A stretch of 64,000 nt of DNA from a bacterium BMS3Abin15. GTDB taxonomy: Bacteria; Patescibacteriota; Minisyncoccia; Moranbacterales; 2-12-FULL-40-10. How positions within the stretch are numbered: the stretch's first letter is position 1; every line of letters starts with the position of its first letter. The DNA is taken from the NCBI GenBank assembly GCA_002923195.1, contig BDTH01000074.1, positions 9,081-73,080 on the forward strand. Direction: 5' to 3'. This document shows, piece after piece, positions 9,493 to 41,868 of this stretch. The notes below the pieces were generated by a model. That model searched no databases and was not told where the DNA came from. It worked only from the letters and a program-made list of their open reading frames with translations. The position numbers and the translations under genes were made by a program.

Positions 9493-9500
9493 CATAAAAA

Positions 9501-20107: not shown

Positions 20108-20172
20108 TTTATTATACTTAAATATTATAACTTATTCTATTATAGCATATGGGATAAATTATTAAATAAAGC

Positions 20173-20556: not shown

Positions 20557-20599
20557 ATATAACTAAACTTTACCTTAAATAAATACTATTTGCAAAAAT

Positions 20600-22585
20600 C
20601 TATTCGTAGCGTAAAGCATCAAGCGCTGATATCTTTGTTGCCCGTTTTGCCGGATAAATGCCCGTCCCTATTCCAACAATTAGAGCAAGGAATAGAATTA
20701 GAAACACAAATAACGCAGGGATGTGCGACACATTTACAAACCCGACTCCCTTAAATAAAGCGAAGGCCGATAATATTAAACTGACGAGCTTGCCGCCTAT
20801 GAATCCGATGATTATGCCGATGACTCCGCCAAAAAATCCCATTATCATTGACTCGGTCAGAAACAACTCCCTTACTTCCGAGGATCTCATTCCCATAGCT
20901 TTCATCAGACCGACTTCTCTGGTGCGTTCAAGCAAAGACACGGTAAGGGTATTGAACATTCCCAACGCCGCCACGGACAGCGCCACGGTGCCCAATAATG
21001 CGAGTATTATTCTTACGGTCGCAAACAAGCTGTTGATTTGCTTGACCGTATCCACCACGGAAGAAGTCGCAAATCCCATAGCTTCAATCTTTCCTCTTAC
21101 ATCGCTTACTTCTTTCTGGCTAGTTAATACCACCGTTACTTGTGAGTAATTGGCTATACCCAAAGAACGCAAGTCTACAAAAGGAACATAGAATACCGGA
21201 GTCTTGTCTCCCGGTATTACCCCGACAATTACATATTCAGCAAATTCCGATTCTATCTTGTCTCCGCCATCAAATAACAGATCGCCTGTCACCACGAAAG
21301 AGGTGTTAAACTTCTCTCCTACCGCATTTCCTTCGTCAATGCCTAGCACTTTCAACATAGTCCTGTTTACCACCGCTTCTTTCTTGGCAGAAGGGGGTAA
21401 TACCACAATTTTCGTTTTTGCCGCCTGGGATGATTCTGATTCAGCAGGAATCTCCACCCAATCGACGGAAGTATCAGCCAGATCACTATCATCATCGGAA
21501 ACGCCCAATACTGCTGACGATCCGCTAATATTAACCAGGTCTGTTTCTGCTATATATCCGCTTTCTTGAGCATGATACGCGTTTTCATCTTTAATGGTCA
21601 GGTACTTCCCTTCTTCGCAATCCGCTTCATTAACATCGCAAGACTGGCGGTTCCAGAGATAGACCAAAGACTTAATCCACTTACCCATTTTTTTATCCTC
21701 ACCTACCAAAATTTTTCCGTTATCATTATCGGAGGCGTAGGGACTGCCCCAAACTTCGCTTCCCAAGTGCAGATCCTCAGTTCTCTTGGTGTATCCTAAT
21801 GTTTCCGAATTTGTATCTGGTCCTTCTCTTACTCTTACCCATTCTCCCGGATAAATGCTGAAATTGATTTCTTCTCTTGCTTTTTCACCCACCTTTTTTT
21901 CATCCCCTCTTGCAACTTCTTCCAATTCACTGACTTGTCCGAATACCTCGGCGACTATATCATTGCTTTCAAAAATATCTCCCCGGACCGGCTGGATAGC
22001 AGACTGCCTGAGGTAATCGGATGTGACGCCGTAAACCGCCATATCAGAAACAGATCCTTGGAAATCAACTTTTCCCACCACAGCAATAACAGGAAGCACC
22101 GCCTCAACATCGCTTATGCCTCTGAACTTGGCTAGCGATTTGTCATTAATTTTTATTTGCGATCCTGTCTGGGAAACAATATTTACCTGTCTCATTTCAT
22201 TAAGCTTAGCAACACGAGAAATTACGAGTTTCTGAAGTCCATAGCCCAGAGAAACAAGAAATACTATAGCGCCAATTCCCACCGCCATACCGCCGATGGT
22301 GATTATTGACCTGGAACGCTTAAAGTTCATGCTCTTGATGGCCAATTCAATAAGATTAACTCTGTTAATAGTGTTTTTGCTATGCCGGCTAAACTTTAAA
22401 ATATGAACATGTAAATTATTAAGAGGCCCTTTTAATTTATCCCTCATAATCTGCGGGGTAAATTTTCCCAAAAACCTGATAACCGAAGCAAGTAAATACA
22501 CAATTAACATTAAAACAAAAGTGCTTGTATACCATACAGACTTTGCGAAATTATCATAAATTCTTGTAAGCAGTTTTTTTATCAT
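20600..22585 (-). CDS. ABC transporter permease, FtsX/MacB-like, with large extracytoplasmic domain
   Basis: N-terminal TM, large soluble domain, C-terminal FtsX-type 3-TM bundle; overlaps the ATPase gene by 4 nt. Confidence 0.8.
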   Translation of the reverse strand: MIKKLLTRIYDNFAKSVWYTSTFVLMLIVYLLASVIRFLGKFTPQIMRDKLKGPLNNLHVHILKFSRHSKNTINRVNLIELAIKSMNFKRSRSIITIGGMAVGIGAIVFLVSLGYGLQKLVISRVAKLNEMRQVNIVSQTGSQIKINDKSLAKFRGISDVEAVLPVIAVVGKVDFQGSVSDMAVYGVTSDYLRQSAIQPVRGDIFESNDIVAEVFGQVSELEEVARGDEKKVGEKAREEINFSIYPGEWVRVREGPDTNSETLGYTKRTEDLHLGSEVWGSPYASDNDNGKILVGEDKKMGKWIKSLVYLWNRQSCDVNEADCEEGKYLTIKDENAYHAQESGYIAETDLVNISGSSAVLGVSDDDSDLADTSVDWVEIPAESESSQAAKTKIVVLPPSAKKEAVVNRTMLKVLGIDEGNAVGEKFNTSFVVTGDLLFDGGDKIESEFAEYVIVGVIPGDKTPVFYVPFVDLRSLGIANYSQVTVVLTSQKEVSDVRGKIEAMGFATSSVVDTVKQINSLFATVRIILALLGTVALSVAALGMFNTLTVSLLERTREVGLMKAMGMRSSEVRELFLTESMIMGFFGGVIGIIIGFIGGKLVSLILSAFALFKGVGFVNVSHIPALFVFLILFLALIVGIGTGIYPAKRATKISALDALRYE

Positions 22586-23355
22586 TTGCTTTTATTGGTA
22601 TCTTTATTATAAAGTCCGCGCTTGTAAACTAATTCTTTTAATAATTTACTTTTCTCTTTTGACCCGTAGGTTTTTACAACTTCCCCGTCAAATATTTGAA
22701 TGAGATAGTTAGCAAAATGTAGATACGCGAAATCGTGAGTTACCATAATAATGGTTTTTCCGTGCTGCTTGTTTAAATCACCGAGAAGCTGCATCATTTG
22801 CTGGCCTGATTCATAATCAAGGTTCCCCGTAGGCTCATCAGCAATAATGACTTCCGGGTTGTGGATAAGGGACCTGGCCAGGGAGACGCGCTGTTGCTGC
22901 CCGAAAGACAACTCGGTAGGAATATAGTCCGCCCACTCAACCATCCCAACCTGTCTCAGCATTTCCAGTGCTTTTTCTTGAGCAATAGTATTTTCTATCC
23001 CGAGGAGCGTTAGGGGAAATGCCACATTTTCCTTGACATCCAAAGCCTTTATCCAGTTTGATTGCTGAAAAACCATTCCGATAAGCTGTTTCCGAAAAAT
23101 AGCCCTGTCGTCCTCGTTTGTTCCCTCATAAAGATTGTGTCCAAAAAGAACCACATTTCCTTCATTGGGATCCTCCAGTCCTAAAATGGTATGAAGTAAT
23201 GTGGACTTGCCACAGCCGGAAGGGCCGAAAATAATAGCAAAATCGCCGTCTTTAATGGTAACGGAGACATTCTTCAGAACCGGAACATCCTGTGAACCGA
23301 CAGAGAATGACTTGCAAACACTATTTACTTCGATAACCGGCTGGTGGTTTTCCAT
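22582..23355 (-). CDS. ABC transporter ATP-binding protein (MacB/LolD type)
   Basis: Walker A GPSGCGKST, signature LSFGQQQR, Walker B IIADEPT. Confidence 0.85.
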   Translation of the reverse strand: MENHQPVIEVNSVCKSFSVGSQDVPVLKNVSVTIKDGDFAIIFGPSGCGKSTLLHTILGLEDPNEGNVVLFGHNLYEGTNEDDRAIFRKQLIGMVFQQSNWIKALDVKENVAFPLTLLGIENTIAQEKALEMLRQVGMVEWADYIPTELSFGQQQRVSLARSLIHNPEVIIADEPTGNLDYESGQQMMQLLGDLNKQHGKTIIMVTHDFAYLHFANYLIQIFDGEVVKTYGSKEKSKLLKELVYKRGLYNKDTNKSK

Positions 23356-28755: not shown

Positions 28756-29031
28756 ATGAAGAGTAGCCCGAAACAACAATCGCTAACTAATTTTAAAAAA
28801 GCCAGCAGCCATATTGACAAAATAATAACGATGGTAGAAAACGGCAATTATTGCATAGACATTATGCAACAAAACTTAGCTGTAATCGGACTGTTGAAAT
28901 CTGCCCACCAGATGTTAATGGAGGGTCATCTTAGGGGTTGTTTTACTAATGCGATGGAGACAAAAAATGAACGGAGAAAACAAAAAATGGTGGAAGAAAT
29001 TTTGAGAGTTTCTAAATTACTCAATAAATAA
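28756..29031 (+). CDS. csoR: CsoR/RcnR-family metal-sensing transcriptional repressor
   Basis: YCIDIMQQNLAVIGLLKSAHQMLMEGHLRGC carries the C-H-C metal-ligand pattern of CsoR. Confidence 0.7.
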   Translation: MKSSPKQQSLTNFKKASSHIDKIITMVENGNYCIDIMQQNLAVIGLLKSAHQMLMEGHLRGCFTNAMETKNERRKQKMVEEILRVSKLLNK

Positions 29032-29033
29032 TT

Positions 29034-29501
29034 GTGAAGAAAAATATAATAATTATAGTTATAGTTGCAGCAGTTGCGTCACTGGTCTTTTATTTTTTAA
29101 GTCAGCGTAACCCTGAAATCAATTCTAGCAATGAAGAAAATAAAGTTATAGTTTATAAATCACCTACTTGCGGATGTTGTGTAAAATACATAAGCTATCT
29201 CAAAAGCCAAGGACTCAAAATTGAAACTGTTACCACTAATGATACAGCTTCTGTAAAAAATGAGCATAAAATCTCGCGCGATATGGAAAGCTGCCATACT
29301 GCCATTTTTGGAGATTATTTTGTAGAGGGACACGTTCCCATTGAAGCAGTCAACAAATTATTGGAAGAAAAACCGGATATTGATGGAATTGCATTACCTG
29401 AAATGCCATCCGGATCTCCCGGGATGCCCGGGCCCAAGTTGGAACCGTTTAAAATTTACAGCATAAAAGACGGGCAAGCATCAGAGTTCTTAAGTTTGTA
29501 A
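29034..29501 (+). CDS. DUF411-type periplasmic copper-binding protein
   Basis: VYKSPTCGCC...SCHT...YFVEGHVP motifs. Confidence 0.7.
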   Translation: MKKNIIIIVIVAAVASLVFYFLSQRNPEINSSNEENKVIVYKSPTCGCCVKYISYLKSQGLKIETVTTNDTASVKNEHKISRDMESCHTAIFGDYFVEGHVPIEAVNKLLEEKPDIDGIALPEMPSGSPGMPGPKLEPFKIYSIKDGQASEFLSL

Positions 29502-29518
29502 TTAAACAATAGTATATT

Positions 29519-29983
29519 ATGAAAAATATTGAAAAATCGTGGATAAAAATAATCTTACTTATAGTAATAGGGATTATAGCTGGATATCTGATAACTATTA
29601 GTATAAGCATAACTAATGATACATTTTCAAATAAAAATATCAACGAAAAAAGAACAGAATTCATTGAAGAAAAAAATGCAATTATAGGAGAACAGCTAGC
29701 ACATGGTGATTATGCTTGTTGTCTAGAAAAACCCTGCACTTATTGCATTGAAAAAACTCCCAAACACGGAGATGGCGCAAAATGCTCTTGTCTGGAGGAT
29801 GTAGTTAATGGAGTCCACCCTTGTGGGGAATGCATTGGAGAAATAATGGAAGGGCATGGAAACAGATTCTTGTCTAAATTCTTTGCTCGATCTATTGCTG
29901 AGGAAGTAGGAACGCAATATACAGACACTTTGAAGAAAATAATGGAAGAAAAATATGGAATACCAATAACTGAACAACTCTAA
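29519..29983 (+). CDS. Hypothetical membrane-anchored Cys/His-rich protein (putative metal binding)
   Basis: CC..C..C, C.C, C..C clusters after an N-terminal TM. Confidence 0.5.
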   Translation: MKNIEKSWIKIILLIVIGIIAGYLITISISITNDTFSNKNINEKRTEFIEEKNAIIGEQLAHGDYACCLEKPCTYCIEKTPKHGDGAKCSCLEDVVNGVHPCGECIGEIMEGHGNRFLSKFFARSIAEEVGTQYTDTLKKIMEEKYGIPITEQL

Positions 29984-30011
29984 CTAATATTTAACAACCA
30001 TATAAATTTTT

Positions 30012-30950
30012 ATGGACAAAAAAATAATCAGCCCTAAATTAAATGAGAAAAAATATTTTTTCCTGTGGATCTTGACTTTGTTGATATTGGTTATCGTCGC
30101 GGGCATCGGTGTCTTTAACATATTAAAAGGAAAGAGTTCAGGGACAAAATCGAATACATCCGAGCAAGCTAACAGCGCCGATAATTCGGAAATTAGTGAA
30201 TTTAAAAAGGCATTATTGCCAGCTGAGGGAATTATTCTGCCAGTCAGATGGAATGATCTGGGAAAAAGACTAACTGAAACAGGGGTGATAGACGAGCAAA
30301 AACTCATTGCAATCTATGATCAGCGCGGCGGGCTGAGCGAAGAAGATAAAAAACTGCTTTATGACAGTGATAACGGAAATATAATTATAACTGCCCAAAA
30401 TTCCGGCTTTCTTCTTAATTTATTATGGGCACTGGGATTAGGAAACAAAAATCCAGTTCTGGAAAAAGGGCCGATGCAAGACCCGAAATATAAAGGAGCT
30501 GACCGTTTCGCATCAACCGGCGGATGGAGCATCGCCAAAGGAAACGCTATGGACCACTATAGCAAGCATAAATTCATTACTCTAACCCCAACTCAGCAGG
30601 AACTGGTAGAAAAAGTAAGTAAAAACATTTACCGTCCGTGCTGTGGAAACTCAACCTATTTTCCGGATTGCAACCACGGCATGGCAATGCTGGGATTTCT
30701 TCAGCTGATGGCTTCCCAGGGAATGGCTGAAGAAGAAATGTACAAAACAGCGCTGACAGTTAATACCTTCTGGTTTCCTGATGCTTATCTGACAATTGCC
30801 AAGTACTTTCAGAAGAAAAAAGTTGCATGGGAAGATGTAAATCCTAAAAACGTTTTAGGATTAGAATATTCGAGTGCTTCCGGCTACAAGCAGGTTATGA
30901 CAGAAGTGAATCCTGTTCAATCACAGGGAGGCAAAAGATGCGGAGTATAA
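30012..30950 (+). CDS. Hypothetical membrane-anchored protein (312 aa) with CCGNSTYFPDCNHG motif
   Basis: ORF with N-terminal TM helix. Confidence 0.5.
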   Translation: MDKKIISPKLNEKKYFFLWILTLLILVIVAGIGVFNILKGKSSGTKSNTSEQANSADNSEISEFKKALLPAEGIILPVRWNDLGKRLTETGVIDEQKLIAIYDQRGGLSEEDKKLLYDSDNGNIIITAQNSGFLLNLLWALGLGNKNPVLEKGPMQDPKYKGADRFASTGGWSIAKGNAMDHYSKHKFITLTPTQQELVEKVSKNIYRPCCGNSTYFPDCNHGMAMLGFLQLMASQGMAEEEMYKTALTVNTFWFPDAYLTIAKYFQKKKVAWEDVNPKNVLGLEYSSASGYKQVMTEVNPVQSQGGKRCGV

Positions 30951-30962
30951 TTATTAAAACAT

Positions 30963-31376
30963 ATGAAAAAAATATACTTCATTGCAATAATATTAATATC
31001 ATTATTCTTAGTGCCCGTTTTAGCTCAAGCGCACGCGGGTGAAGATCAAGAAGAACATTGTGCTCTGGGAGAAATGCCTACCCTGAGCATAGTCGAAGGG
31101 ATGGAACATATGCTGGGAGGAGGTGGAGGTTCTATGATGGGAAGTTTTGGACCAGGACCAGCAAGCTGGTTTGGCTTCGGATTCGGTTTTATCTTCATGA
31201 TAATTTTCTGGGCTTTGATTATATTCGGAATTATTGTTTTAATTAAATGGTTAGTTAATCAAAATAAAACAGACGCTGGGAAGAAATCCCCGATGGATAT
31301 CTTAAAAGAAAGATATGCCAAGGGGGAAATAGATAAAGAGGAATTTGAAGAAAAGAAGAAAGATATAAGTCAGTAA
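30963..31376 (+). CDS. SHOCT-domain membrane protein with His/Met-rich N-terminal region
   Basis: C-terminal [23 protein letters not shown] (SHOCT-like); central Gly-rich TM. Confidence 0.6.
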
Positions 31377-31413
31377 CTAGTAACCCGTAACTTGTAACTA
31401 GAAATTTATTATT

Positions 31414-33471
31414 ATGAGTTGTTGTCCTGAACACAAATTAAATAGCCACAAACATCATCACGGGGATCACCCTGGTCATAGTATGGACCATGGCGGCCAT
31501 GATATGTCTGCAGACCTTTCGATGCATGGCAGTGCACAAACTTTCTTGCGCCGTTTTTGGATTGTCACCTTTTTGTTAATCCCCTTGTTCTTAACTAGTC
31601 AAGTAGCTGTTGATTTTTTGGGAATTGGGGATTTTGCTTTCCGAAAAATTTTGCAGTTTATACTGGCTACAATAATCTTTGGATTTTCTCTGATATTTTT
31701 CCAGCACGCCAGGCATGAGATTCAGATGAAAAAGTACGGAATGATGACACTGGTTTCTCTGGCAGTGGGAGCCGGATACTTATTTTCCGTAGTTTCAACC
31801 TTTTTTCCTCAATTGGAAGCAGAGTTTTATTTAGAAATTTCAACTTTAGTCTGGGTACTTCTCTTCGGCCATTACCTGGAGGCCAAATCAACTACAGCTG
31901 CTGGAAATGCATTGCAGGAAGTGGCTAAGTTACTGCCAAAAAAAGCTCATCTGCTAAAAGATGAGGAAGAAATTGATGTAGATGTAGCAGAGCTAAAAAA
32001 GGGCAACATCGTTTTGATAAAGCCAGGAGAAAAAGTTCCAGCTGACGGAATAATTATAAAGGGCACCGCTAATGTAGACGAGGCATTAATAAGCGGTGAA
32101 TCGAAACCCGTTAGGAAAATAAGAGATGAGGAGGTGGCAGCCGGATCAATTTGCCTGGATGGATCTTTAGAAATAAAACTCACTAAAGTGGGAGAGAATT
32201 CAACTATTGGACAGATTCAAACATTAATTGCTAAGGCTCAAATGACAAAGCCTCAAAAACAGAAATTAGCCGATAAAGCCGCAGGCATTTTAACCTTTGT
32301 AGCTCTGGCAGCTGCAATAATTTCCCTTTTGGTCTGGTCTGTTTTTCTGGGAAAACCATTGGCTTTTGCTTTTACCTTAGCTATTACCACATTGGTTATC
32401 GCTTGTCCTCACGCCTTGGGCATGGCTATCCCGGCAGTAACTGCAATTTCCACAAAGCTGGCAGTAAAAAATGGAATCTTTATAAAAGATCTAGCTAAAA
32501 TGGAACTTGTTAAAGATATTAATTATGTAATATTTGATAAAACAGGAACATTGACCAAGGGAGAGTTCGGACTGACAAATATAGTGCCATTAAGTAATGA
32601 GGCTGACATATTGAAAATCGCTGGATCATTAGAACAGAATTCCTCCCATGTCATCGGCCAAGCCTTCACAAGAAAAGCCAAAGAAGAAAATATACAATTA
32701 GAAAAAATAGATGATTTTGAAAATTTCGCCGGAAAAGGAGTAGGAGGAAAAATTTCAGATCAAATTTATTGGTTGGGAAACAAAATTCTAATGAAAGAAA
32801 AAGGAATCTTATTAAATAAAGCAGAAGAGGAAAATAAAAAATTATTTAATTCTAGAAAAAGTTTGGTTTTTTTGGCTAATGAATCAGTATTGATTGGAAT
32901 TTTTGCTTTGGCTGATAAAATTAAACCAGAATCATTTTCTATAGTTAATAAACTTCACAAACTAGGAATAAAAGTGGCTATGCTTACCGGTGATAATAAA
33001 CAAGTAGCTGAAGGCGTGGCCAAGGAATTGAAAATTGATACTTATTTCGCCGAGGTGTTGCCCGGAGATAAATATAGAAAAGTTAAAGAGCTCCAGGGCC
33101 AAGGGCACAGGGTAATGATGGTGGGCGATGGAGTTAATGACGCCCCGGCCCTAACTCAAGCCGATGTAGGAGTGGCCATTGGTGCTGGAACTGACGTAGC
33201 CGTAGAGGCCGGTGATATAGTGCTGACCAGAAATAATCCAGAAGATATTTCCCGCTTGATAGTTTTAGGAAGAAAAATTTACCGCAAGATGTTGGAAAAT
33301 CTTATTTGGGCGTTAGGTTACAATGTTGTAGCTATTCCAGCTGCCGCCGGAGTACTCGCTCCTTGGGGATTTTTCCTTCGTCCAGAAATCGGAGCATTGA
33401 TAATGAGCTTATCTACCGTGATTGTGGTGGCTAACGCTTTAACTCTAAAAAAAACCAGTTTGGAAATTTAA
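31414..33471 (+). CDS. copB: Heavy-metal P1B-type ATPase, CopB-like (His-rich N-terminus, CPH motif)
   Basis: HKHHHGDHPGHSMDHGGHDM, IACPHALG, FDKTGTLT, GDGVNDAPAL. Confidence 0.85.
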   Translation: MSCCPEHKLNSHKHHHGDHPGHSMDHGGHDMSADLSMHGSAQTFLRRFWIVTFLLIPLFLTSQVAVDFLGIGDFAFRKILQFILATIIFGFSLIFFQHARHEIQMKKYGMMTLVSLAVGAGYLFSVVSTFFPQLEAEFYLEISTLVWVLLFGHYLEAKSTTAAGNALQEVAKLLPKKAHLLKDEEEIDVDVAELKKGNIVLIKPGEKVPADGIIIKGTANVDEALISGESKPVRKIRDEEVAAGSICLDGSLEIKLTKVGENSTIGQIQTLIAKAQMTKPQKQKLADKAAGILTFVALAAAIISLLVWSVFLGKPLAFAFTLAITTLVIACPHALGMAIPAVTAISTKLAVKNGIFIKDLAKMELVKDINYVIFDKTGTLTKGEFGLTNIVPLSNEADILKIAGSLEQNSSHVIGQAFTRKAKEENIQLEKIDDFENFAGKGVGGKISDQIYWLGNKILMKEKGILLNKAEEENKKLFNSRKSLVFLANESVLIGIFALADKIKPESFSIVNKLHKLGIKVAMLTGDNKQVAEGVAKELKIDTYFAEVLPGDKYRKVKELQGQGHRVMMVGDGVNDAPALTQADVGVAIGAGTDVAVEAGDIVLTRNNPEDISRLIVLGRKIYRKMLENLIWALGYNVVAIPAAAGVLAPWGFFLRPEIGALIMSLSTVIVVANALTLKKTSLEI

Positions 33472-34111: not shown

Positions 34112-34588
34112 TTATAGAATTAAAGGGAACAGCCCCAGTGCTAGTAGAAAGAAAATGAAAAATAGAAATTTATATATTTTTTGCGGAAGAGTTTCGTAGT
34201 TAGAAGAAATATTAACTATTGTATATATGGACATAAGCAATATAATGAACAGAAAATAGATAATGGCTATGTCTTGATAATGACTGGCCACCACTAGCCC
34301 GATTACATTAAAAACAAAGACATTGCCTATCGTATTGGTATGCCAGCCAAGATAATCCCACTTTTTTATTTCCTCTCTGCGATAGCCGATTTTCGAATAA
34401 GCTAGGGAAGAAACAAAAAGCAATGGCACTGCCAGAACTAATTGTAGTATAGCAATGTAGCTGAATTCCTCAGGGCCGTTGTTCCAGATAAAAGCGAAAA
34501 TAAAAATCAAAACGCCCATCATTATAGAGCTGATGTGCACTTTGGAAATCGCTTTCTCCGGGCTGGTTTTGAAAATATTCCTTGGCAT
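34112..34588 (-). CDS. Hypothetical integral membrane protein (158 aa, 4-5 TM); its 5' third is duplicated at 41362..41604
   Basis: ORF; near-identical N-terminal 65 aa occur in a second copy. Confidence 0.6.
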   Translation of the reverse strand: MPRNIFKTSPEKAISKVHISSIMMGVLIFIFAFIWNNGPEEFSYIAILQLVLAVPLLFVSSLAYSKIGYRREEIKKWDYLGWHTNTIGNVFVFNVIGLVVASHYQDIAIIYFLFIILLMSIYTIVNISSNYETLPQKIYKFLFFIFFLLALGLFPLIL

Positions 34589-34647
34589 ATTACTTTTTAA
34601 ATTTTACCACAAAACAAAAATAACCCTAACTGGGTTATTTTCTTGTC
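34410..34647. repeat. Direct repeat, left copy (5' part of membrane-protein gene + leader + terminator)
   Basis: Near-identical to 41420..41604 + 41740..41797. Confidence 0.7.
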
Positions 34648-34850
34648 GCAATTGCTGAACGAAGCTTGAACCTTTTTGAATAAAAAATGCTTGAACAGCT
34701 TCGCTACGGCTCGGGCGTGGCGGAATTGGAGGCCGTGCCAATTTCATTGGCGTGCCGTCTCTTTGTAATTTTTTATAACCCCCTCCTATCCATTTTTTTA
34801 TGACGTTTTTTTGGATGCGCTAGAGATTCTATTGGCATACAATTTGTCTT

Positions 34851-35957
34851 TTATGAATGAAACGCCGGATGTAGCTTTTTATTTAGCTCCATACGTTCAG
34901 CCAAATATCGTACGATTTCACAGTTTTTCTCGCATTTTCCCAATATATCACCTGTTTCATTAACTACTTGTCCGAGGCATCCCCCAGCACAATTATATAT
35001 GTATTTGCAATCACTGCATGTTTTTTTCTTTAAGTTTTCCACGCATCTTGAACGAACATTAGCTACTGCTTTTTCGTCATAGACAATAATGTCTTTTTCC
35101 GGAATATATTTTCCATAAATTAATTGTTGAAGTGGACCTGGGGAATATTCAGAACCCAATTGGGTAAAATCACAACATGAGACATATCCATCAGTGGTTA
35201 AATGTGGATTTGGAGTACAAGCCCTGCAAGCATGTCTTGTTTTTTCATCAAAATTAACGATGCACATTGTATTGTACCATACCCCAAGTTTTTTCGCTTT
35301 TTTATGAGCAATAAGAAAATTTTTGGCAAATTCAATAGGATCCCATTCAAAGACAGTGCTCGAATTATCATCGATCGGGGCAAATGCGGGAAGAACATTT
35401 ATATACTTTATGCCGATACTATGAAAATATCCTACTATTTCTGATTGTCTTTTCATTATTGGGGGTGTCAATGTGACCCTTGCTCCTGCCTGCATTGATT
35501 TCTGCTTGGAAAAATATTTAAGATTTCTTTCTACAATCTCAGAAGTTGGCTTTTTAGTTGCCGTTGGTCTTTGAATATCATGAACTTCAGCCGGTCCGTC
35601 GCATGAAACCCACAAAATATTTACATTTTTGGCAATCCACTTAGCTACTTTTTCCGAGAAGAAGCCATTGGTCTGCAATTCTACAGTTAATAAATTGTCT
35701 GCTTTCTTGTATGCATAATTTTTTATTTTTTTCATCAGTTCAAATTCCAATGTTGGCTCGCCAATGCCGTAAAATCTAATATGCCTACTGGCGTTATCCC
35801 TGAAAAAATCATCAATCCCTCGCTTGGAAAAATTGAAATCTAAAGATTGATGCTCTTTCTTAAGGTTTTGATTTTTATGCGTATAGCAATAAATGCACCT
35901 AAGATTGCATCTTGTTGATAAAAAGAAAGAAATCATTTGTTTTCTTACATGTGCCAT
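34851..35957 (-). CDS. Radical SAM enzyme with SPASM domain, anSME-like (anaerobic sulfatase-maturase family)
   Basis: CNLRCIYCY (CxxxCxxC), QTNGFFSEKVAKWIAKNVNILWVSCDGPAEVHDIQR, C-terminal Cys clusters CRAC...SCCDF...CSDCKYIYNCAGGC. Confidence 0.8.
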   Translation of the reverse strand: MAHVRKQMISFFLSTRCNLRCIYCYTHKNQNLKKEHQSLDFNFSKRGIDDFFRDNASRHIRFYGIGEPTLEFELMKKIKNYAYKKADNLLTVELQTNGFFSEKVAKWIAKNVNILWVSCDGPAEVHDIQRPTATKKPTSEIVERNLKYFSKQKSMQAGARVTLTPPIMKRQSEIVGYFHSIGIKYINVLPAFAPIDDNSSTVFEWDPIEFAKNFLIAHKKAKKLGVWYNTMCIVNFDEKTRHACRACTPNPHLTTDGYVSCCDFTQLGSEYSPGPLQQLIYGKYIPEKDIIVYDEKAVANVRSRCVENLKKKTCSDCKYIYNCAGGCLGQVVNETGDILGKCEKNCEIVRYLAERMELNKKLHPAFHS

Positions 35958-36019
35958 ATTATTCTAATGCTATTTATTATGAATTTATTGCTATATAATA
36001 ATATTAAACGAATTGTAGC

Positions 36020-37363
36020 CTACTTGTATAAACCCTCTTTTAAGCGAGTTAGCAATTTATGAGTTTTCAGTCCAATTGTAGATTTGGTTCTCCAGCCCGA
36101 ACGATAAGTTGCTATCAGAAATTTTTTGCGCTCTCGCAATTCTTCTCTTGGCGGTAAAGTATCGTAAACATCCACATATCCATTTAAATCATCTTTTTTA
36201 AAGCGACTTAAAAAATAGGCTTGGTCTTGAAAAATACTACCGACACTTACATTAACTACCGTAGTTTTTTTAGGAATCATGTCAATCATTTCATTGGTGA
36301 TGAATTTTTCAGCGCCAACATGAGGCAAGTGGAAAGTTATAATGTCAGATTCGGTTAATATTTTTTCCAATGGCTTAAATTGAAGATTGTATCGTTTTTC
36401 AAGATCCGGATTTTGGCTTGTCGAATAATAGGAAACATCCATGTCAAATCCATCTCTGGCAATTTGTACAACTCTTCTGCCAATACGACCAAGGCCAATT
36501 ATACCAATTTTTTTATTCATCAATGATTCACCTGTCGGAATAATTTTAGCAACATCAACGACCGAAAGATAATTACCTTGATTAATTTTGTTTTTTATTT
36601 CTTCGCTAACTGATCTTGAGTCATAAATAATAACATGACTTTCTCTCAAAAAATTGTCTATGGGTCTATAGGCGATATTTAATGCATGTTGCAAGTCACT
36701 CAGGCTATAAATCGCATTCATATGAAAGCCATGACTGGCTATTTTAAATAAATCTTCTTTAAGATTATCATTTACCAACAAGCCGACGGTTAATCCTTTG
36801 AGTGTTTCTTCTTTAAACTCATCAGGACTGGTAATTTTTAATTTTCCAACTTTTACATATTCATGAATCCACGAACCTCTTAAATTATCTCGCCAATTTT
36901 TATTAAACTTTCTGACATCGTCGGTAATCTTGGCCATAATTTCTTCTTGTAAATGTCTCCGATTGTTCGTTGGTGTTAAGCCTAGGGCATTTTCATTATT
37001 CTTATAAAGCTGCAATAAACCGACAAATGCTAGTTCCGCAACCGAATCAGTTCCGTAATCAGGAATACTGGGAATGTGAAGGTTATGTTTTAGCGCATAA
37101 TCTTTATTAATTCTGTGTTCGAAAGCATGAGTCCAAAAGGCAATCGTCTTTAATTGAGGATTCTCGTCGATTACTTCATTCGGAATATCAACCCAGCAAC
37201 TTATAATGCAATCAGCACCTTTGACTCTTTCCAGCACCTCTTCTTCGGTTTCACAGGTATTATATTCGACTACTTCTTCCGCAATTTCATTTAATCGATC
37301 TCTGTGTTCGGGATAAAAGATAACCGAATCTAATACAACAATTTTTTTATATTTTTTATTCAT
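36020..37363 (-). CDS. D-isomer-specific 2-hydroxyacid dehydrogenase family protein, divergent (about 170-aa insertion between the catalytic and NAD domains)
   Basis: GIIGLGRIGRRV Rossmann motif; N-terminal catalytic-domain similarity. Confidence 0.65.
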   Translation of the reverse strand: MNKKYKKIVVLDSVIFYPEHRDRLNEIAEEVVEYNTCETEEEVLERVKGADCIISCWVDIPNEVIDENPQLKTIAFWTHAFEHRINKDYALKHNLHIPSIPDYGTDSVAELAFVGLLQLYKNNENALGLTPTNNRRHLQEEIMAKITDDVRKFNKNWRDNLRGSWIHEYVKVGKLKITSPDEFKEETLKGLTVGLLVNDNLKEDLFKIASHGFHMNAIYSLSDLQHALNIAYRPIDNFLRESHVIIYDSRSVSEEIKNKINQGNYLSVVDVAKIIPTGESLMNKKIGIIGLGRIGRRVVQIARDGFDMDVSYYSTSQNPDLEKRYNLQFKPLEKILTESDIITFHLPHVGAEKFITNEMIDMIPKKTTVVNVSVGSIFQDQAYFLSRFKKDDLNGYVDVYDTLPPREELRERKKFLIATYRSGWRTKSTIGLKTHKLLTRLKEGLYK

Positions 37364-37393
37364 AATGCTAATTATTGAATTGATTATTTAAGG

Positions 37394-37464
37394 AGGCGCA
37401 GGTAGGATTCGAACCCACATGCAGAGCTCTGCAAGCTCTGGTCTGACTACTTGACTACCGCGCC
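37394..37464 (-). tRNA. tRNA-Cys (anticodon GCA)
   Basis: Acceptor GGCGCGG/CTGCGCC, anticodon stem AGAGC/GCTCT, loop TTGCAGA, T arm GTGGG-TTCGAAT-CCTAC, discriminator U, 3-bp D stem. Confidence 0.8.
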
Positions 37465-37470
37465 ATATTT

Positions 37471-38949
37471 TTACGGATTGGAAATTAATCTTTTGGATAA
37501 AAGTATTGGAATATAACACGGAACAATTATATCTCTACCATCTTCCGCTTTCATTTCTTTGATCAAATCATTTTTTCTCATAATTTTTCCTGTAATTTCT
37601 TTCGCTTCATTTTCTACGATTAAATTCTGGAAATCTTTATCTTTTTTATTGATAGTAATCACATAGGGTATCCATTTTAAGTCCCCTGCTTTCTTTTTGA
37701 CATTATAATTAATTTTTCTATCATCTAAGTCAACCCTAAAATCTAATGAATTAAGTTCTTTTTCAAGTTTTTTAGCATTCTCCAAAGAATCATCATCACG
37801 AGTAATTATTCTGGCTTGTATCGGAGCAACCCAAAAAGGAAACGATCTAAAGCCGGTCCTTGTTTCTTTCTTAATTGCTCTGTCAATAAAAAAGTAGGCA
37901 GAACGTTCAATCGATGAGAATGGAAAAACGACATGCAATATGGAAACGGGTTTTTTAATACCACCCTTCGTTTTAAATTTCAAATCAAGTGAAAATTCCG
38001 AAGAACCATCATCCACAAGACATGTGGCGATTTCTACTGGCGATTTTAAGCTATCAAATACTTTATACTCAATATCAATTTTTACTCCATCTTTGCAACG
38101 GACATCTTCATAAACTGCCAACAAGATTGGCTTGTTTATAGATTTGACTATTGTTTTTAAAAAATCAAAATTTTCTTTTAAGAAATCCTGTGTCATACTG
38201 CATAATAATTCATATTCTGGATCAAATTTCTCTATTTCATTTAATATTTTTGTATGTGCAGCTAATGCTATTTTTATTGACGACATTATATCTGCATTGA
38301 TAACATCGAGTTCTGGTATGCTAAAGCTTCTAACTCTTTTACATAATTGTAGCTCTTTTTCTTCTTCAAACCTGTAGCTCTTGGATATTTCGAAAAAACC
38401 AATTGGAAGACCTTTGTCATGAAGATTAATCCCTTTTGCTATTGAAAGTTTTTGCATACAAGCGTTATATCTTAATATTCGATTCTTTTTATTGATAACG
38501 ACATCGTATTGATTTAATCCATATAGCCCGGGATTTTTAGAAATTATCGCGATTTGCTTTTTTACTTCTGGAACATTGACATCAAGTAACTCTCCTCCAC
38601 CAACTTTATATAGTGGAATATCTTGATCATCGCTAAATTCTTTAACAACTAGCCAACTATACTTTTCTATTGCCTCCATGACAGTTGTAGCGTGTTGTAT
38701 TTGTCTCATATGTCCAGGCTCCGATAATGGATCCCATTCAAAACCCATTTCATTAATCATTTTATTAAGTTTGGTTTCTCGATCCTTAAATTTATGATTT
38801 TTTAAAAAACACTCGCTATCCACAAGTGATTTTAAACAAACTTCGGTTTTATCAAATTTATAATCATCCACAGGTGTAACTGTGGAGGACGAATCCAGTA
38901 TATAATATTTTTTATCAGAATGACTTTTTTTAGACTTTCTTATAGACAT
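37471..38949 (-). CDS. Class II aaRS-like protein, ThrRS-family paralog with degenerate active site (second zinc His missing); retains anticodon-binding domain
   Basis: YNACMQ (Cys ligand), motif-2-like SKSYRFEEE...RVRSFSIPELDV (no His), anticodon-binding FPFWVAPIQARIIT...DFRVDLDDRKINYNVKKK...IPYVITIN. Confidence 0.65.
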   Translation of the reverse strand: MSIRKSKKSHSDKKYYILDSSSTVTPVDDYKFDKTEVCLKSLVDSECFLKNHKFKDRETKLNKMINEMGFEWDPLSEPGHMRQIQHATTVMEAIEKYSWLVVKEFSDDQDIPLYKVGGGELLDVNVPEVKKQIAIISKNPGLYGLNQYDVVINKKNRILRYNACMQKLSIAKGINLHDKGLPIGFFEISKSYRFEEEKELQLCKRVRSFSIPELDVINADIMSSIKIALAAHTKILNEIEKFDPEYELLCSMTQDFLKENFDFLKTIVKSINKPILLAVYEDVRCKDGVKIDIEYKVFDSLKSPVEIATCLVDDGSSEFSLDLKFKTKGGIKKPVSILHVVFPFSSIERSAYFFIDRAIKKETRTGFRSFPFWVAPIQARIITRDDDSLENAKKLEKELNSLDFRVDLDDRKINYNVKKKAGDLKWIPYVITINKKDKDFQNLIVENEAKEITGKIMRKNDLIKEMKAEDGRDIIVPCYIPILLSKRLISNP

Positions 38950-38995
38950 AATATCTCTTTGAAAGTAATTTGTAGTTTGATTAGCAAGTTTATTT

Positions 38996-39046
38996 TTTAA
39001 AAAAAGGGACAGGAAACAATACTGTGTTCCCGTCCCTTTTTCTTTT
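38996..39046 (-). terminator. Rho-independent terminator between the two ThrRS-like genes
   Basis: gggacaggaaaca-atac-tgtgttcccgtccc stem with flanking A/T runs. Confidence 0.55.
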
Positions 39047-40450
39047 CTAACGAAAACGAGGCTGCTTTGAAAGAAGGCTGGGCCAACTTAGTGGCTCAAA
39101 AGGTTTGTCTCCCTGAAGTTGATCGAGGTTTTGGGAAAACTCGGATTCCTTCATTTCCTTTTGTCCAGAAATTCCTCGTTCTCTCACAGCGATGGCCTGA
39201 TTCTCGAGTTCCTTATCCCCAACCATACCAACAAATGGCACCCAATTGACTTCTGCCTCCCGTATTTTGTACCCAACAGTCTCCTTGCGATCATCGATTT
39301 CCACCCTTGCCCCTATCTTTGAGGCAATTTCCTGACAACGCAAAATATGTCTGTCGGCTACAGGTATCAAGCGAACCTGAGTAGGACATAGCCAGTATGG
39401 AAACTTGGCAACTTCTCCTTTTTGTATTCTCCTTGCCTGTAGCTCCAAAAGAGCATACAGATTGCGATCTATAGACCCGGAGATTGATGCATGGAGAAGT
39501 AGGGGGCGTTGCTGTTTGCCATCCTTGTCAACATAGTTAATATCGAACCTCTCTGCATTCTCAACATCGATTTGCACAGTGGAAAGAGCGGCCGCTTTCT
39601 TTTGCCCATCAATCACGTTAAATTCAAACTTAAGGACAAAATAAAAGAACCTTTCTTTCCATACCTCGAGCAATACTGGACGCCCGAAATCCTTAACGAT
39701 TTCCATAACAAAGTCGCGGTTTTTTTGAAAGAAATCATCAACAACTCTTATTGCCATAACATGGTTGAGTTCGAGATCGCTCATCCATCTCTTACAAAGA
39801 AGATATTGCTGATAAAATTCTTCCTTGGCTTGCTCCACATCAACACAAAGAGAATGCATATCGGGCATCGTAAATACCCTCAGACGCCTCAATCCAGCCA
39901 ATTCCCCCGCCTGCTCCCTGCGAAATGAATAATGGGTCAGTTCGTAAATCTTCACTGGTAAATGATGATAGCTAATCCCCATATCATGCATGATCAGATA
40001 CTGTCCAAAGCAAGCAGCAAAACGAAGAAAATACTTCTTATCTCCACTTAGCAAATAGTATTGCCTTGCCGGAAAGCGTTTCAGATAGCTTGCCAGTTGT
40101 GGATGTTTAAGATCATACATAACTGGACTTTCAACCTGTATGCCACCATAGTCCTTTACAATTTCAGAAGCATGTCTTTCCATAAGGCGCTTGATTAAGT
40201 GTCCCTTTGGCAACCAACGAAAATTGCCAGAATCAGCAGCTGGTTCATAATCAACCAACTCCATTTGTTGCATCATCTTCACATGAGCAGGCGCTTCCTT
40301 CACCTCCCTCGAGCCAGAGCTTTCGTACGAATAAAAAACCTTCAAATCTTCACTCCCTGCCCATTTGAATTTCTCTACCTTAATAATTGATCCATCGGGT
40401 GAAACAATCAACCACTCCGATTTTGGCTCTTCTTCTTGTTTTGCACCCAT
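39047..40450 (-). CDS. Threonyl-tRNA synthetase-like catalytic core + anticodon-binding domain, lacking TGS/editing N-domains (ORF extends to 40588; RBS AAGGAGG supports start 40450)
   Basis: All three ThrRS zinc ligands are aligned: AACFGQ, MPDMHSL, LLLHASISGS. Motif 2 is FRREQAGELAGLRRLRVF. Anticodon-binding region is KFPYWLCPTQVRLIPV...GARVEIDDRKETVGYKIREAEVNWVPF. Confidence 0.75.
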   Translation of the reverse strand: MGAKQEEEPKSEWLIVSPDGSIIKVEKFKWAGSEDLKVFYSYESSGSREVKEAPAHVKMMQQMELVDYEPAADSGNFRWLPKGHLIKRLMERHASEIVKDYGGIQVESPVMYDLKHPQLASYLKRFPARQYYLLSGDKKYFLRFAACFGQYLIMHDMGISYHHLPVKIYELTHYSFRREQAGELAGLRRLRVFTMPDMHSLCVDVEQAKEEFYQQYLLCKRWMSDLELNHVMAIRVVDDFFQKNRDFVMEIVKDFGRPVLLEVWKERFFYFVLKFEFNVIDGQKKAAALSTVQIDVENAERFDINYVDKDGKQQRPLLLHASISGSIDRNLYALLELQARRIQKGEVAKFPYWLCPTQVRLIPVADRHILRCQEIASKIGARVEIDDRKETVGYKIREAEVNWVPFVGMVGDKELENQAIAVRERGISGQKEMKESEFSQNLDQLQGDKPFEPLSWPSLLSKQPRFR

Positions 40451-40608
40451 CGCCCTTCCTCCTTTATTCGTTTTTAATGTGCTCTTCAAAGAATTATTCT
40501 TTGAAACATTATATTGTATATCAGAAACTTGTTTATTGTCAATTCTTTTATTTTTTTTCATATGCTTCCTTGAATAATTATTTAACACTTATTTTTATAC
40601 TTGTATAT

Positions 40609-41346
40609 TTATCTGAGGCTGTAACCGCCATCAACAACAAGTAATTCGCCGGTTATAAAACTTGCATCACTGGATGCCAAAAATAAGACGGCTTTTGCAA
40701 TTTCGTCAGGTTCAGCAGATCGCTTGAGTGGAGTTTGCTGTTCGAAGAATTTTATAACCCTCTTTCCAGCTTCTTTTGTCATGTCAGTCATTACATTGCC
40801 CGGAGCGACAGCGTTTATGCGAATATTAGGAGCCAACTCTTTTGCAAATGCCTTTGTCATTGTAATTATTCCTCCTTTTGCTGATGAATATGCCAATACG
40901 GATGCAGCGCCAAGAAAACCATATATGGATGAAATATTGACAATGGATCCACTTCCATTTCTTGTCATAATTGGCGAAACTTCTCTTATCATCAACCATG
41001 CACTGGTTAGATTAATATCCATAGTTGCATGCCAAATTTTTTCGCTTGATTTCCAATTGCCTTCTCTAAAAATAACCCCGGCATTATTCACAAGTATGTC
41101 AATCTTGCCAAATTTTTTTATTGTTTCAGACACAAGGTGCTTTACATCTTCTTCCTTAGAAACATCTGCCTGAATAAAAATAGCTTTGTTTTTTCCAATA
41201 GCATTTACAACTTTTTTTGCATCTTCTGTTTGATCTTTGCAATTAATAACAACCCTTGCACCCTCTTTAGCAAAAAGAATGGCCGTTGCTTTTCCTATGC
41301 CTCGTGATGATCCTGTAATAATTGCAACTTTATTTTTTAGTTTCAT
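40609..41346 (-). CDS. Short-chain dehydrogenase/reductase (FabG-like)
   Basis: TGSSRGIG, NAG, S-YxxxK (YSSAKGG) motifs. Confidence 0.85.
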   Translation of the reverse strand: MKLKNKVAIITGSSRGIGKATAILFAKEGARVVINCKDQTEDAKKVVNAIGKNKAIFIQADVSKEEDVKHLVSETIKKFGKIDILVNNAGVIFREGNWKSSEKIWHATMDINLTSAWLMIREVSPIMTRNGSGSIVNISSIYGFLGAASVLAYSSAKGGIITMTKAFAKELAPNIRINAVAPGNVMTDMTKEAGKRVIKFFEQQTPLKRSAEPDEIAKAVLFLASSDASFITGELLVVDGGYSLR

Positions 41347-41361
41347 AAATATAGGACTTTT

Positions 41362-41604
41362 TTATTTGATCAAATCATTAACGCTAACGCCCAATCCCTT
41401 GGCTATTTTTGAGTAGGCAAGAGTGGAAACAAATAAGAGGGGGATTGCTAAAACCAGTTGGAATATAGCAATACGACTGAGTTCGTCAGGGCCGTTGTTC
41501 CAGATAAAAGCGAAAATAAAAATCAAAACGCCCATCATTATAGAGCTGATGTGCACTTTGGAAATTGCTTTCTCCGGGCTGGTTTTAAAAATGTTTTTAG
41601 GCAT
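41362..41604 (-). pseudogene. Truncated duplicate (first ~65 aa) of membrane-protein gene 34112..34588 with a 15-aa unrelated tail
   Basis: MPKNIFKTSPEKAISKVHISSIMMGVLIFIFAFIWNNGP... is identical or near-identical to the other copy, then diverges. Confidence 0.5.
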
Positions 41605-41739
41605 ACCCTGTAGTAGAAATTCAAATGGGCTTTGCCCAAAATGAACTAATTATTTACTTAAAATTTATTTTTAATTAAAAACCCTGCCCCATGTACTCCC
41701 TTAATACTCCGTAACTTTTGAATTTTCACTACGGGGCAT
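41605..41739. mobile_element. MITE-like insertion, 135 bp, with ~20-bp terminal inverted repeats (ccctgtagtagaaattcaaa / tttgaattttcactacgggg)
   Basis: Present in the right repeat copy, absent from the left. Inserted exactly at the start codon; CAT is duplicated at both ends. Confidence 0.55.
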
Positions 41740-41762
41740 ATTACTTTTTTAAATTCTACCAT

Positions 41763-41790
41763 AAAACAAAAATAACCCTAAATGGGTTAT
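41763..41790 (-). terminator. Rho-independent terminator after tRNA-Pro (ataaccc-attta-gggttat + U-run)
   Basis: Same structure is present in the left repeat copy (34611..34640). Confidence 0.6.
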
Positions 41791-41797
41791 TTTTTTG

Positions 41798-41868
41798 TCG
41801 GGGCACTGAGAATCGAACTCAGCCTACATGGTCCCAAACCAAGCGTACTACCAATATACGATGCCCCG
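41798..41868 (-). tRNA. tRNA-Pro (anticodon UGG)
   Basis: C1-G72 pair and A73 typical of bacterial tRNA-Pro; anticodon loop TTTGGGA with G37; T arm CTGAG-TTCGATT-CTCAG. Confidence 0.85.

Follow-up and report, generated by a model that had tools for sequence, protein, structure and literature searches.

A mobile cassette pairing a threonyl-tRNA synthetase with a divergent synthetase-like paralog in a Patescibacteria-type genome: a candidate small-molecule biosynthetic system

We describe a horizontally acquired island of about 6.8 kb, at positions 34649-41406 of a 64-kb window of DNA from the bacterium BMS3Abin15, in which a bona fide threonyl-tRNA synthetase (ThrRS) adjoins a strongly divergent ThrRS-like paralog, a tRNA-Cys gene and genes for a protein with the 2-hydroxyacid dehydrogenase (2HDH) fold, a short-chain dehydrogenase/reductase (SDR) and a radical S-adenosylmethionine (SAM) enzyme with a SPASM region. 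The window is all the DNA that was examined for this organism, and coordinates given without a locus label are positions in it; loci labelled L001, L004 and so on are comparison contigs or genome segments, in each of which the gene neighborhoods were read. Domains and families were called with the curated cut-offs of Pfam and NCBIfam, tRNAs with ARAGORN and Rfam, and folds with AlphaFold2 models and Foldseek searches against the PDB. On the minus strand, which carries all the features of this list except one strand-neutral insertion, the order from high to low coordinates is: the genes for RNase Y and an HU-like protein, tRNA-Pro, a terminator hairpin, a leader, a 130-nt insertion, an 80-codon open reading frame (ORF), the SDR, ThrRS, ThrRS-like, tRNA-Cys, 2HDH-fold and radical SAM/SPASM genes, about 200 nt of non-coding DNA, a second terminator and leader, and an intact membrane-protein gene of 158 codons. 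All six genes that an earlier note on this DNA had placed between two copies of a flanking repeat were recovered.

The gene at 39047-40450 codes for a 467-residue archaeal-type ThrRS that exceeds the NCBIfam cut-offs of both NF003068 (599 bits, cut-off 484) and TIGR00418 (405 bits, cut-off 384), and its PDB sequence matches are to ThrRS. In alignments it retains all three zinc ligands (E. coli C334, H385 and H511) and the motif 2 and motif 3 arginines, along with the conserved Glu and Arg of the anticodon-binding domain. It aligns from position 143 of the 613 positions of NF003068 and gives no match to the editing domain PF08915, that is, it has the form of a 'ThrRS-cat'; as editing-less ThrRS enzymes are known in Crenarchaeota, the missing domain does not exclude ThrRS activity. 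It is 54% identical to the cassette-linked ThrRS of Streptomyces and 47% identical to the best archaeal ThrRS sampled. The start at 40450 is supported by a conserved promoter and a Shine-Dalgarno sequence upstream, and a 46-codon N-terminal extension of the ORF was rejected because that stretch is the conserved promoter and operator described below. As a side observation, two full-length archaeal ThrRS sequences, P0049 (from a Promethearchaeota archaeon) and P0051, have Asp in place of the Cys that is the first zinc ligand ('LRFASDFGQ' versus 'LRFAACFGQ' elsewhere).

The adjoining gene at 37471-38949 codes for a 492-residue protein with class II catalytic and anticodon-binding domains and no editing domain. 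The earlier note had spoken of two ThrRS-like paralogs, and both proteins are indeed of class II, but they are not equivalent: they share only about 22% identity, and the second scores below the cut-offs that the first exceeds, with 295 bits against 484 for NF003068 and 120 against 384 for TIGR00418. Its AlphaFold2 model (mean pLDDT 81) retrieves ThrRS structures as all of the top 49 PDB matches in Foldseek, with a target-normalised TM-score of about 0.78 against constructs of the catalytic plus anticodon-binding domains. Comparison of the window with the Streptomyces locus L021 gives about 30% identity for the paralogs and 55% for the 2HDH-fold proteins, indicating that the paralog evolves much faster than its neighbors. 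Arg193 of motif 2 and Arg349 of motif 3 are retained, as are Cys164 and His339 at two of the three zinc-ligand positions. At the second of these positions the window's subclade has Asp215 and other paralogs have His; the equivalent of E. coli Asp383 is Glu213, and Glu in nearly all paralogs; and the equivalent of Gln484 is Leu in the subclade of the window. Given that the ATP-binding arginines are kept and the pocket residues changed, the paralog looks catalytically competent with a remodelled amino-acid pocket, as far as its alignments can tell.

Its anticodon-binding domain has likewise diverged. E. coli E600 and R609 are reported to serve anticodon recognition (Sankaranarayanan et al. 1999), R609 as a contact to the anticodon base G35. 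Six aligned bona fide ThrRS sequences keep this Glu and Arg, save for one with Lys in the place of Arg. Among the paralogs the Glu is not conserved. The Arg position is occupied by Glu in the window and by an acidic residue, Glu or Asp, in all 10 of the 10 Patescibacteria-type paralogs; the Arg is retained in the paralogs of Actinobacteria and Acidobacteria and in that of L026, none of which has a tRNA-Cys in its cluster. In the L022 paralog the whole anticodon-binding domain is shortened.

Of the remaining proteins of the island, the 447-residue product of 36020-37363 matches PF00389 and PF02826 above cut-off and has a GxGxxG motif, marking it as an NAD(P)-binding protein of the 2HDH fold. 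Its AlphaFold2 model (mean pLDDT 91) shows an extra alpha/beta subdomain at about residues 190-270, which Foldseek did not identify, returning generic family members only, with PHGDH, GRHPR and phosphite dehydrogenase (PTDH) as the top matches at 13-20% identity. Its homologs are 50-91% identical across phyla, and 50-60% between Patescibacteria and Streptomyces. The SDR (40609-41346, 245 residues, PF13561 and PF00106) obtains from NCBIfam only generic SDR, FabG and glucose-1-dehydrogenase subfamily matches. The 368-residue product of 34851-35957 (PF04055) bears the radical SAM motif CNLRCIYC (CxxxCxxC) and at least seven C-terminal cysteines in the SPASM region. It had been called anSME-like, and it is a radical SAM/SPASM enzyme; nevertheless, it falls far below the anSME cut-off (78 bits against 349 for TIGR03942), as it does for QhpD and for PapB, the NCBIfam family that it matches best (96 against 340), and in other versions of the locus a TauD-family dioxygenase takes its place. 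In PDB sequence searches it matches CteB (5WGG, full-length alignment) and anSME (4K37).

As PapB, QhpD, CteB and anSME are all maturases, one could imagine that the SPASM enzyme modifies a ribosomal peptide, the locus then serving the maturation of a ribosomally synthesised and post-translationally modified peptide (RiPP) or of a peptide-derived cofactor. We hold this to be highly improbable: besides the low scores and the replacement by TauD, the enzyme has no N-terminal peptide-recognition extension, and no conserved small ORF that might encode a precursor peptide was found in the intergenic gaps. A known anti-phage defence system was also considered and rejected, as PADLOC-DB 2.0 yielded only a generic radical SAM likeness to pVip (E = 7e-12) over the N-terminal core.

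The best promoter-like site of the scanned region (TTGACA, an 18-nt spacer and TACAAT, with 11 of 12 matches) precedes the ThrRS gene at 40485-40542, together with the element that follows it, a perfect 9-5-9 palindrome, TTTCAAAGA ATAAT TCTTTGAAA. Promoter and palindrome are kept in L007, L011, L012, L015 and L024, and also in L001, where symmetric changes have occurred in both arms. Judged by its sequence, the palindrome fits an operator for a helix-turn-helix (HTH) regulator of the XRE/HTH_3 type, the gene for which precedes the SDR gene in L011, L012 and L015 (the L015 ORF being HTH_3). In the window only the last 14 codons and the stop of this gene remain, at 41362-41406, and with the regulator gene thus destroyed the operon from ThrRS to the radical SAM gene may be constitutive here. 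Apart from the two tRNAs, Rfam detected no further RNA element such as a T-box or riboswitch in the island at E <= 1.

The island is bracketed by a real direct repeat of about 260 bp, made up of the terminator of tRNA-Pro, a leader and codons 1-66 of the membrane-protein gene. The left copy (34391-34648) overlaps the 5' end of the resident gene, which is intact, lies outside the island at 34112-34588 and codes for a 158-residue protein without Pfam or NCBIfam match but with 100% identity to a hypothetical protein recorded for bacterium BMS3Abin15; this copy ends with the leader and a terminator-like hairpin at 34642-34616. The right copy consists of a truncated second version of the gene (codons 1-66, at 41407-41604; the earlier note had put it at about 65 residues) and of the leader with the tRNA-Pro terminator hairpin (41736-41800, hairpin at 41794-41768), and it is followed by tRNA-Pro(UGG) at 41797-41868. 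The terminator occurs in both copies as had been noted, but its stem, given as 7 bp, counts 11 pairs in our scan when A-T pairs are included. The two copies are 84% identical over 201 nt (34389-34589 versus 41405-41605) and 93% identical between 34594-34648 and 41746-41800. This is not the near-perfect identity over about 190 bp that had been described, and the profile is less uniform: codons 14-39 are identical (78 nt), and 9 of 129 nt differ across codons 1-43, but codons 44-66 carry 23 differences in 69 nt, which alter 4 amino acids and change 10 codons synonymously. As this divergence is mostly synonymous, the truncated copy is best read as an orthologue that evolved under selection in another lineage rather than as a decaying duplicate.

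Inserted in the right copy, one base upstream of the start codon of the truncated ORF, is a 130-nt element (41606-41735) with terminal inverted repeats of about 20 nt and a 5-bp GCATA target duplication. The earlier note's claim that a miniature inverted-repeat transposable element (MITE) interrupts this copy holds as regards the insertion and its hallmarks; since no second full copy occurs in the 64-kb window, we call the element MITE-like rather than a proven MITE.

The island itself can be delimited closely. The 80-codon ORF at 41362-41604 is a chimera that runs on in frame from 66 codons of the membrane-protein gene into the last 14 of the HTH_3 gene, and as the fusion lies there, the right junction falls at about 41403-41409; the left boundary is most simply at 34648/34649, where the repeat ends. 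The non-coding tail downstream of the radical SAM gene (34649-34850) has homology only in the closest relative, L012, the alignment with which reaches 34719. The metagenome contigs L011 and L012 are 91% identical at the DNA level to window positions 41409-34719, and the figure for L024 is 84% over 41353-34850. Beyond the cassette, all three lack protein matches to the flanks of the window, and the L011 flank shares with it only a tRNA-Gly(TCC) gene. With the cassette at 84-91% identity within unlike flanks, and with one junction truncating a cassette gene, the block is accessory and acquired, as had been supposed. On a side note, the tRNA-Gly(TCC) gene of the window (9421-9493) is 81% identical to that of L011 (6069-6143), which lies about 0.7 kb from the L011 cassette; the cassette in the organism of L011 thus adjoins another tRNA gene than it does here, and in L004 it adjoins tRNA-Gln and a large serine recombinase. 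L012 further has, at about 7290-7360 (corresponding to window 34700-34740), an extra G-rich insertion of about 70 nt in its tail with the repeating motif AATTCCGCC, which could be the remnant of a recombination site.

The simplest history, in our view, would be that cassette DNA, together with a relative's tRNA-Pro/membrane-gene fragment, joined the resident locus by a single crossover, and that the central part of the repeat was homogenised later. The cassette would thereby have been inserted between tRNA-Pro and the membrane-protein gene through recombination with a donor-derived fragment of the same locus, leaving the direct repeat of about 260 bp. The truncated gene copy, with its donor-type and mostly synonymous divergence, fits the earlier idea of repeat-mediated integration. 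We found no recombinase or integrase gene among the ORFs and Pfam matches of 34649-41406, and the repeat begins past the 3' end of tRNA-Pro, with at most 4 nt of overlap, so that the tRNA gene itself lies outside it. A tRNA-targeted integrative element with tRNA-Pro as its att site was accordingly rejected, for the repeat is some 260 bp of downstream sequence and an integrase is missing. The island occupies the same site in each of the six public assemblies of this species; neither they nor the one relative found, which is 72% identical and has a different synteny, show an empty site in which the membrane-protein gene adjoins tRNA-Pro without the island. The GC content at third codon positions is 0.42 in the ThrRS gene, 0.24-0.30 in the other four island genes and mostly 0.33-0.45 in flanking genes; the ThrRS gene may have a history different from that of the rest of the cassette, or may be tuned for high expression. 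We also observed that the insertion site adjoins a copper/heavy-metal resistance block (28756-33471) with genes for a CsoR-type repressor, a DUF411 protein, a SHOCT protein and a CopA-type P-type ATPase, the Pfam calls for which come partly from the identical locus L031.

Other copies lie beside genes of mobile elements: a large serine recombinase with tRNA-Gln in L004, IS66 in L019, IS4 in L021, and in L010 DNA methyltransferases with an HNH protein. No relative of the paralog was found in IMG/VR, giving no sign of viral carriage. The cassette is thus mobile. One rival account is that these are ordinary housekeeping genes, namely the sole ThrRS and tRNA-Cys of the organism with unrelated metabolic genes at their sides and a repeat born of local duplication. 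The constancy of the site in six of six assemblies, the canonical tRNA-Cys and the lack of another thrS or tRNA-Cys gene in the window would suit such an account. Yet the same five genes and the tRNA travel together through flanks unlike those of the window, the junction truncates the regulator gene of the cassette, L001 has an additional bacterial ThrRS, and the archaeal-type ThrRS of Streptomyces and Acidobacteria was seen in the cassette context only. Hence, we give the housekeeping explanation very little credence.

Family searches seeded with the ThrRS-like and the 2HDH-fold proteins, followed by reading of the neighborhoods, recovered a core of the ThrRS-like, 2HDH-fold and SDR genes that recurs together in many Patescibacteria-type contigs, a Microgenomates metagenome-assembled genome (MAG), an Alphaproteobacteria rumen MAG, two Streptomyces genomes, a 30%-GC organism frequent in metagenomes, a Pyrinomonadaceae (Acidobacteria) MAG and other high-GC contigs. 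The Streptomyces clusters are those of GCA_054083595.1 (JBSFJA010000006.1, positions 105377-126711) and GCA_006334905.2 (VDLZ02000023.1). A short contig of a Bacteroidota MAG, L009, has the ThrRS-like gene with two radical SAM genes only. Thus, the gene combination, which the earlier note could not match to a described system, is a recurrent cassette that is not confined to this genome. Every complete cluster has either this radical SAM/SPASM enzyme (the window, L001, L007, L010, L012, L019, L022 and L024) or a TauD-family Fe/2-oxoglutarate dioxygenase (L004, L021, L026, L027, L028 and L029), never both. This suggests that the two are solutions to one and the same step, and they may be its anaerobic and aerobic alternatives. 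Between versions, genes for HemN-like and B12-dependent radical SAM enzymes, SAM-dependent methyltransferases and a glycosyltransferase come and go, a turnover typical of secondary metabolism.

A bona fide ThrRS adjoins the cassette in all lineages but one, and its type is interchangeable: the Patescibacteria loci carry an editing-less archaeal enzyme, those of Streptomyces, Acidobacteria and L029 an archaeal one of full length that includes the tRNA-Thr_ED domain, and L004, L019, L022 and L026 a bacterial one. L001 is the only locus with both the editing-less archaeal and the bacterial ThrRS on one contig. In the window and in the Streptomyces and L022 versions, the cassette-specific enzymes all stay below the NCBIfam equivalog cut-offs, which are exceeded only by the bona fide ThrRS genes and by matches to a generic SDR subfamily model. 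Three further features of these loci deserve mention in their own right. The larger versions include a protein of 311-319 residues without Pfam or NCBIfam match (L001 7488-8447, L017 770-1681, L019 11387-12322), which adjoins the HemN-like and B12 radical SAM genes and is absent from the window. ARAGORN places at L019 179-270 a tRNA-Thr(GGT) whose 92 nt make it unusually long; the bacterial ThrRS gene that heads the cassette on this 295-kb contig lies about 1.1 kb downstream of it. Two tandem response-regulator-like ORFs and an ATP-binding cassette (ABC) ATPase ORF of the window (19724-23355) have counterparts of 36-38% identity beside the Microgenomates cassette at L004 15493-16644, a likeness that probably reflects relatedness of the lineages rather than linkage.

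Taking these observations together, we propose with moderate confidence that the island is an acquired copy of a widespread small-molecule biosynthetic cassette, which by analogy would follow the logic of the AcmD/AcmF pair of the ascamycin cluster, with the bona fide ThrRS providing supply and self-resistance. Of the two functional ideas of the earlier note, an aminoacyl-tRNA-dependent pathway and self-resistance, the second is the better supported, given that seven lineages have a bona fide ThrRS, its type varying, next to the cassette. The conservation and mobility of the cassette, its junctions and the active-site residues kept or lost are observed; the chemistry, the target and the part of the tRNA-Cys are inferred. 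The ThrRS-like protein would recognise and transfer a threonine-like amino acid, or a zinc-binding one such as a thiol, which it would either activate itself or take from an aminoacyl-tRNA. The 2HDH-fold protein, the SDR and a C-H-activating enzyme, namely radical SAM/SPASM here and TauD elsewhere, would build or tailor the partner molecule. By the same analogy we propose a product that bears or imitates a threonyl group and has ThrRS as its target. The bona fide ThrRS would supply Thr-tRNA, or keep translation running since the product probably targets ThrRS, or both, a logic demonstrated by experiment for AcmD/AcmF in the biosynthesis of ascamycin and for SbzA in that of SB-203208. The conserved promoter and the putative palindromic operator would drive the cassette, the HTH regulator gene having been destroyed on integration in this genome.

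One feature that does not follow from this scheme is the tRNA-Cys(GCA) gene at 37392-37464, between the paralog and the 2HDH-fold gene. It had been called a private tRNA-Cys; it looks ordinary, with a GGCGCGG acceptor stem, a U73 discriminator, no encoded CCA and standard tRNA-Cys features throughout. As U73 and the GCA anticodon are ordinary identity features for cysteinyl-tRNA synthetase (CysRS), that enzyme should charge it. Nevertheless, every Patescibacteria-type locus examined has it within the cassette; the paralogs of these loci range over 55-100% identity, and the loci come in two gene orders and at least four genomic contexts. The tRNA and the 2HDH-fold gene have been relocated together in L018, and in L022/L023 a tRNA-Cys of different sequence is found after the ThrRS that adjoins the cassette. 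The cassettes of Streptomyces, Acidobacteria, Alphaproteobacteria, Microgenomates and Bacteroidota have no tRNA-Cys. The co-variation of its presence with the change from Arg to Glu or Asp in the paralog, which is a correlation, hints at a change of tRNA partner.

The main rival to our proposal is a pathway centred on this tRNA, in which the paralog, re-specified to tRNA-Cys, charges it with a non-standard residue or removes one, and the redox enzymes modify that residue on the tRNA, which then serves as an acyl carrier for a metabolite, or yields a modified aminoacyl-tRNA that feeds translation as in SepRS/SepCysS or the pyl operon. Such a pathway would account for the constancy of the tRNA in Patescibacteria, for the second tRNA-Cys beside L022/L023 and for the altered Arg in 10 of 10 paralogs of these loci as opposed to the retained Arg where the tRNA is absent, and its outline resembles that of pylTSBCD. 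We nonetheless think it unlikely in view of the ordinary CysRS identity features, the anticodon that reads a sense rather than a stop codon, the absence of the tRNA from the cassettes of five other lineages, the lack of a pyridoxal phosphate (PLP) enzyme of the SepCysS or SelA kind, the secondary-metabolic look of the variable tailoring genes and the shortened anticodon-binding domain of L022. A more particular version, which strikes us as speculative and unlikely too, would be that the Patescibacteria paralog switched to the cassette tRNA-Cys, and that this tRNA is a covalent carrier for aminoacyl remodelling by the radical SAM enzyme, the atypical NAD enzyme and the SDR. If true, a mobile island would here encode a pathway that makes small molecules on a tRNA template, or even one that reaches cysteine- or threonine-like aminoacyl-tRNA by a new tRNA-dependent route.

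The tailoring genes of the larger versions bear on another alternative, in which the cassette makes a free beta-substituted amino acid as a threonine analogue, the ThrRS discriminates against it, and the paralog sequesters, senses or ligates it. Beta-ethynylserine is an example of the threonine analogues that ThrRS mischarges, and the clusters of their producers carry protective tRNA-related genes (PMC13149037). C-methylating radical SAM enzymes and a hydroxylase are present in larger versions, PALP and RidA genes adjoin L026, L004 has a RidA-family gene nearby, and in L001 there is a PALP gene about 9 kb upstream. Conversely, the core lacks an aminotransferase or other amino-acid-forming enzyme, the role left to the paralog is vague, and the Patescibacteria ThrRS has no editing domain, the opposite of what added discrimination would need; we accordingly consider a free threonine analogue quite improbable. 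The threonine-analogue, RiPP and housekeeping readings fit less well than the tRNA-Cys-centred pathway.

Returning to the proposal of a small-molecule cassette with a ThrRS-directed product, several points weigh against it. A ThrRS inhibitor leaves the conserved tRNA-Cys unexplained. The cluster of L010/L020 has no ThrRS within its visible flanks, and the 64 kb of the window hold no other thrS, including none of the bacterial type, beside which the cassette enzyme would stand as a second copy. Neither an exporter nor an intact regulator gene is encoded in the island of the window. In alignments to the glyoxylate reductases 2DBQ, 5AOV and 6BII, the catalytic Arg of the 2HDH family is replaced by an invariant Val374 and the Glu by Leu403, the position of the catalytic His lying outside all three; with both residues replaced, the product of 36020-37363 is no classical 2-hydroxyacid dehydrogenase, and the earlier assignment stands for the fold and the Pfam domains but not for the catalytic site. 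The paralog, with its adenylation residues kept, unlike those of AcmF, may be a true synthetase for something else. Patescibacteria, moreover, seldom carry biosynthetic clusters. Lastly, in the tetranucleotide comparison that had been suggested for the block, the island is only weakly atypical, its distance being about 1.8 standard deviations above background with 4 of 44 background windows deviating as much, which is not decisive.

If our proposal is correct, the cassette would specify a new natural-product family aimed at ThrRS, a validated antibiotic target with few natural inhibitors reported, and its presence in cultivable Streptomyces makes it directly testable. It is found as well in genome-reduced Patescibacteria, which are thought to be nearly devoid of secondary metabolism. 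The exchange of radical SAM for TauD would exemplify anaerobic and aerobic solutions to a single biosynthetic step, and the 2HDH-fold protein without the catalytic residues of its family, along with the travelling tRNA-Cys, points to new enzymology. We found in the searchable literature no description of a ThrRS-like biosynthetic enzyme, of a pair of ThrRS and ThrRS-like proteins, or of clusters of ThrRS with radical SAM or 2HDH genes, and the cassette family is apparently undescribed.

Among known systems with individual likenesses to the cassette, pylTSBCD likewise places a tRNA gene in the same operon with genes for a class II synthetase-type protein, a radical SAM enzyme and a dehydrogenase. 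The cassette differs in its sense anticodon GCA, the normal tRNA-Cys identity features, the absence of the tRNA from most versions and the lack of Pyl homology; a pyl-like system for a coded non-canonical amino acid was rejected, since GCA is neither a stop nor an unassigned anticodon and the tRNA has standard tRNA-Cys features. The ThrRS of the window is comparable to the crenarchaeal ThrRS-cat, being archaeal-type and without the N-terminal editing domain. Unlike in the split ThrRS-cat/ThrRS-ed pair of Crenarchaeota, its partner in the cassette also lacks an editing domain, the hosts are bacteria, and redox enzymes are linked. BorO and ObaO, encoded in the borrelidin and obafluorin clusters of the producers, are second ThrRS copies that confer resistance by target replacement, and the cassette resembles those clusters in the second ThrRS within it; in contrast, they are based on polyketide synthases or non-ribosomal peptide synthetases, have no ThrRS-like biosynthetic enzyme, and bear immunity genes of the bacterial type.

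Closer parallels come from clusters in which synthetase-like proteins take part in biosynthesis. SbzA, an IleRS-like protein of SB-203208/altemicidin biosynthesis, uses aminoacyl-tRNA to build an inhibitor of its own synthetase and also confers self-resistance (PMC12945691). It shares with the cassette the extra synthetase copy in a cluster; however, SbzA is of class I and does both jobs in one protein, whereas the cassette has two very different proteins with about 22% identity. In the ascamycin cluster of Streptomyces sp. 80H647, AcmD, a genuine AlaRS, provides Ala-tRNA and is less sensitive to the product, and AcmF, AlaRS-like but divergent, moves the aminoacyl group onto the scaffold of the antibiotic (PMC12945691). 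As with AcmD and AcmF, a bona fide synthetase here adjoins a divergent, truncated paralog of the same synthetase in a biosynthetic cluster. The cassette departs from them in using ThrRS rather than AlaRS, in having no sulfamate or nucleoside genes, and in the tRNA gene embedded within it; and, while AcmF has lost its activation residues, the cassette paralog keeps the ATP-binding arginines and zinc ligands. Read in this way, the cassette would be a new, ThrRS-based variant of the cluster type that joins a synthetase with a synthetase-like paralog, carried on a mobile island in a Patescibacteria-type genome.

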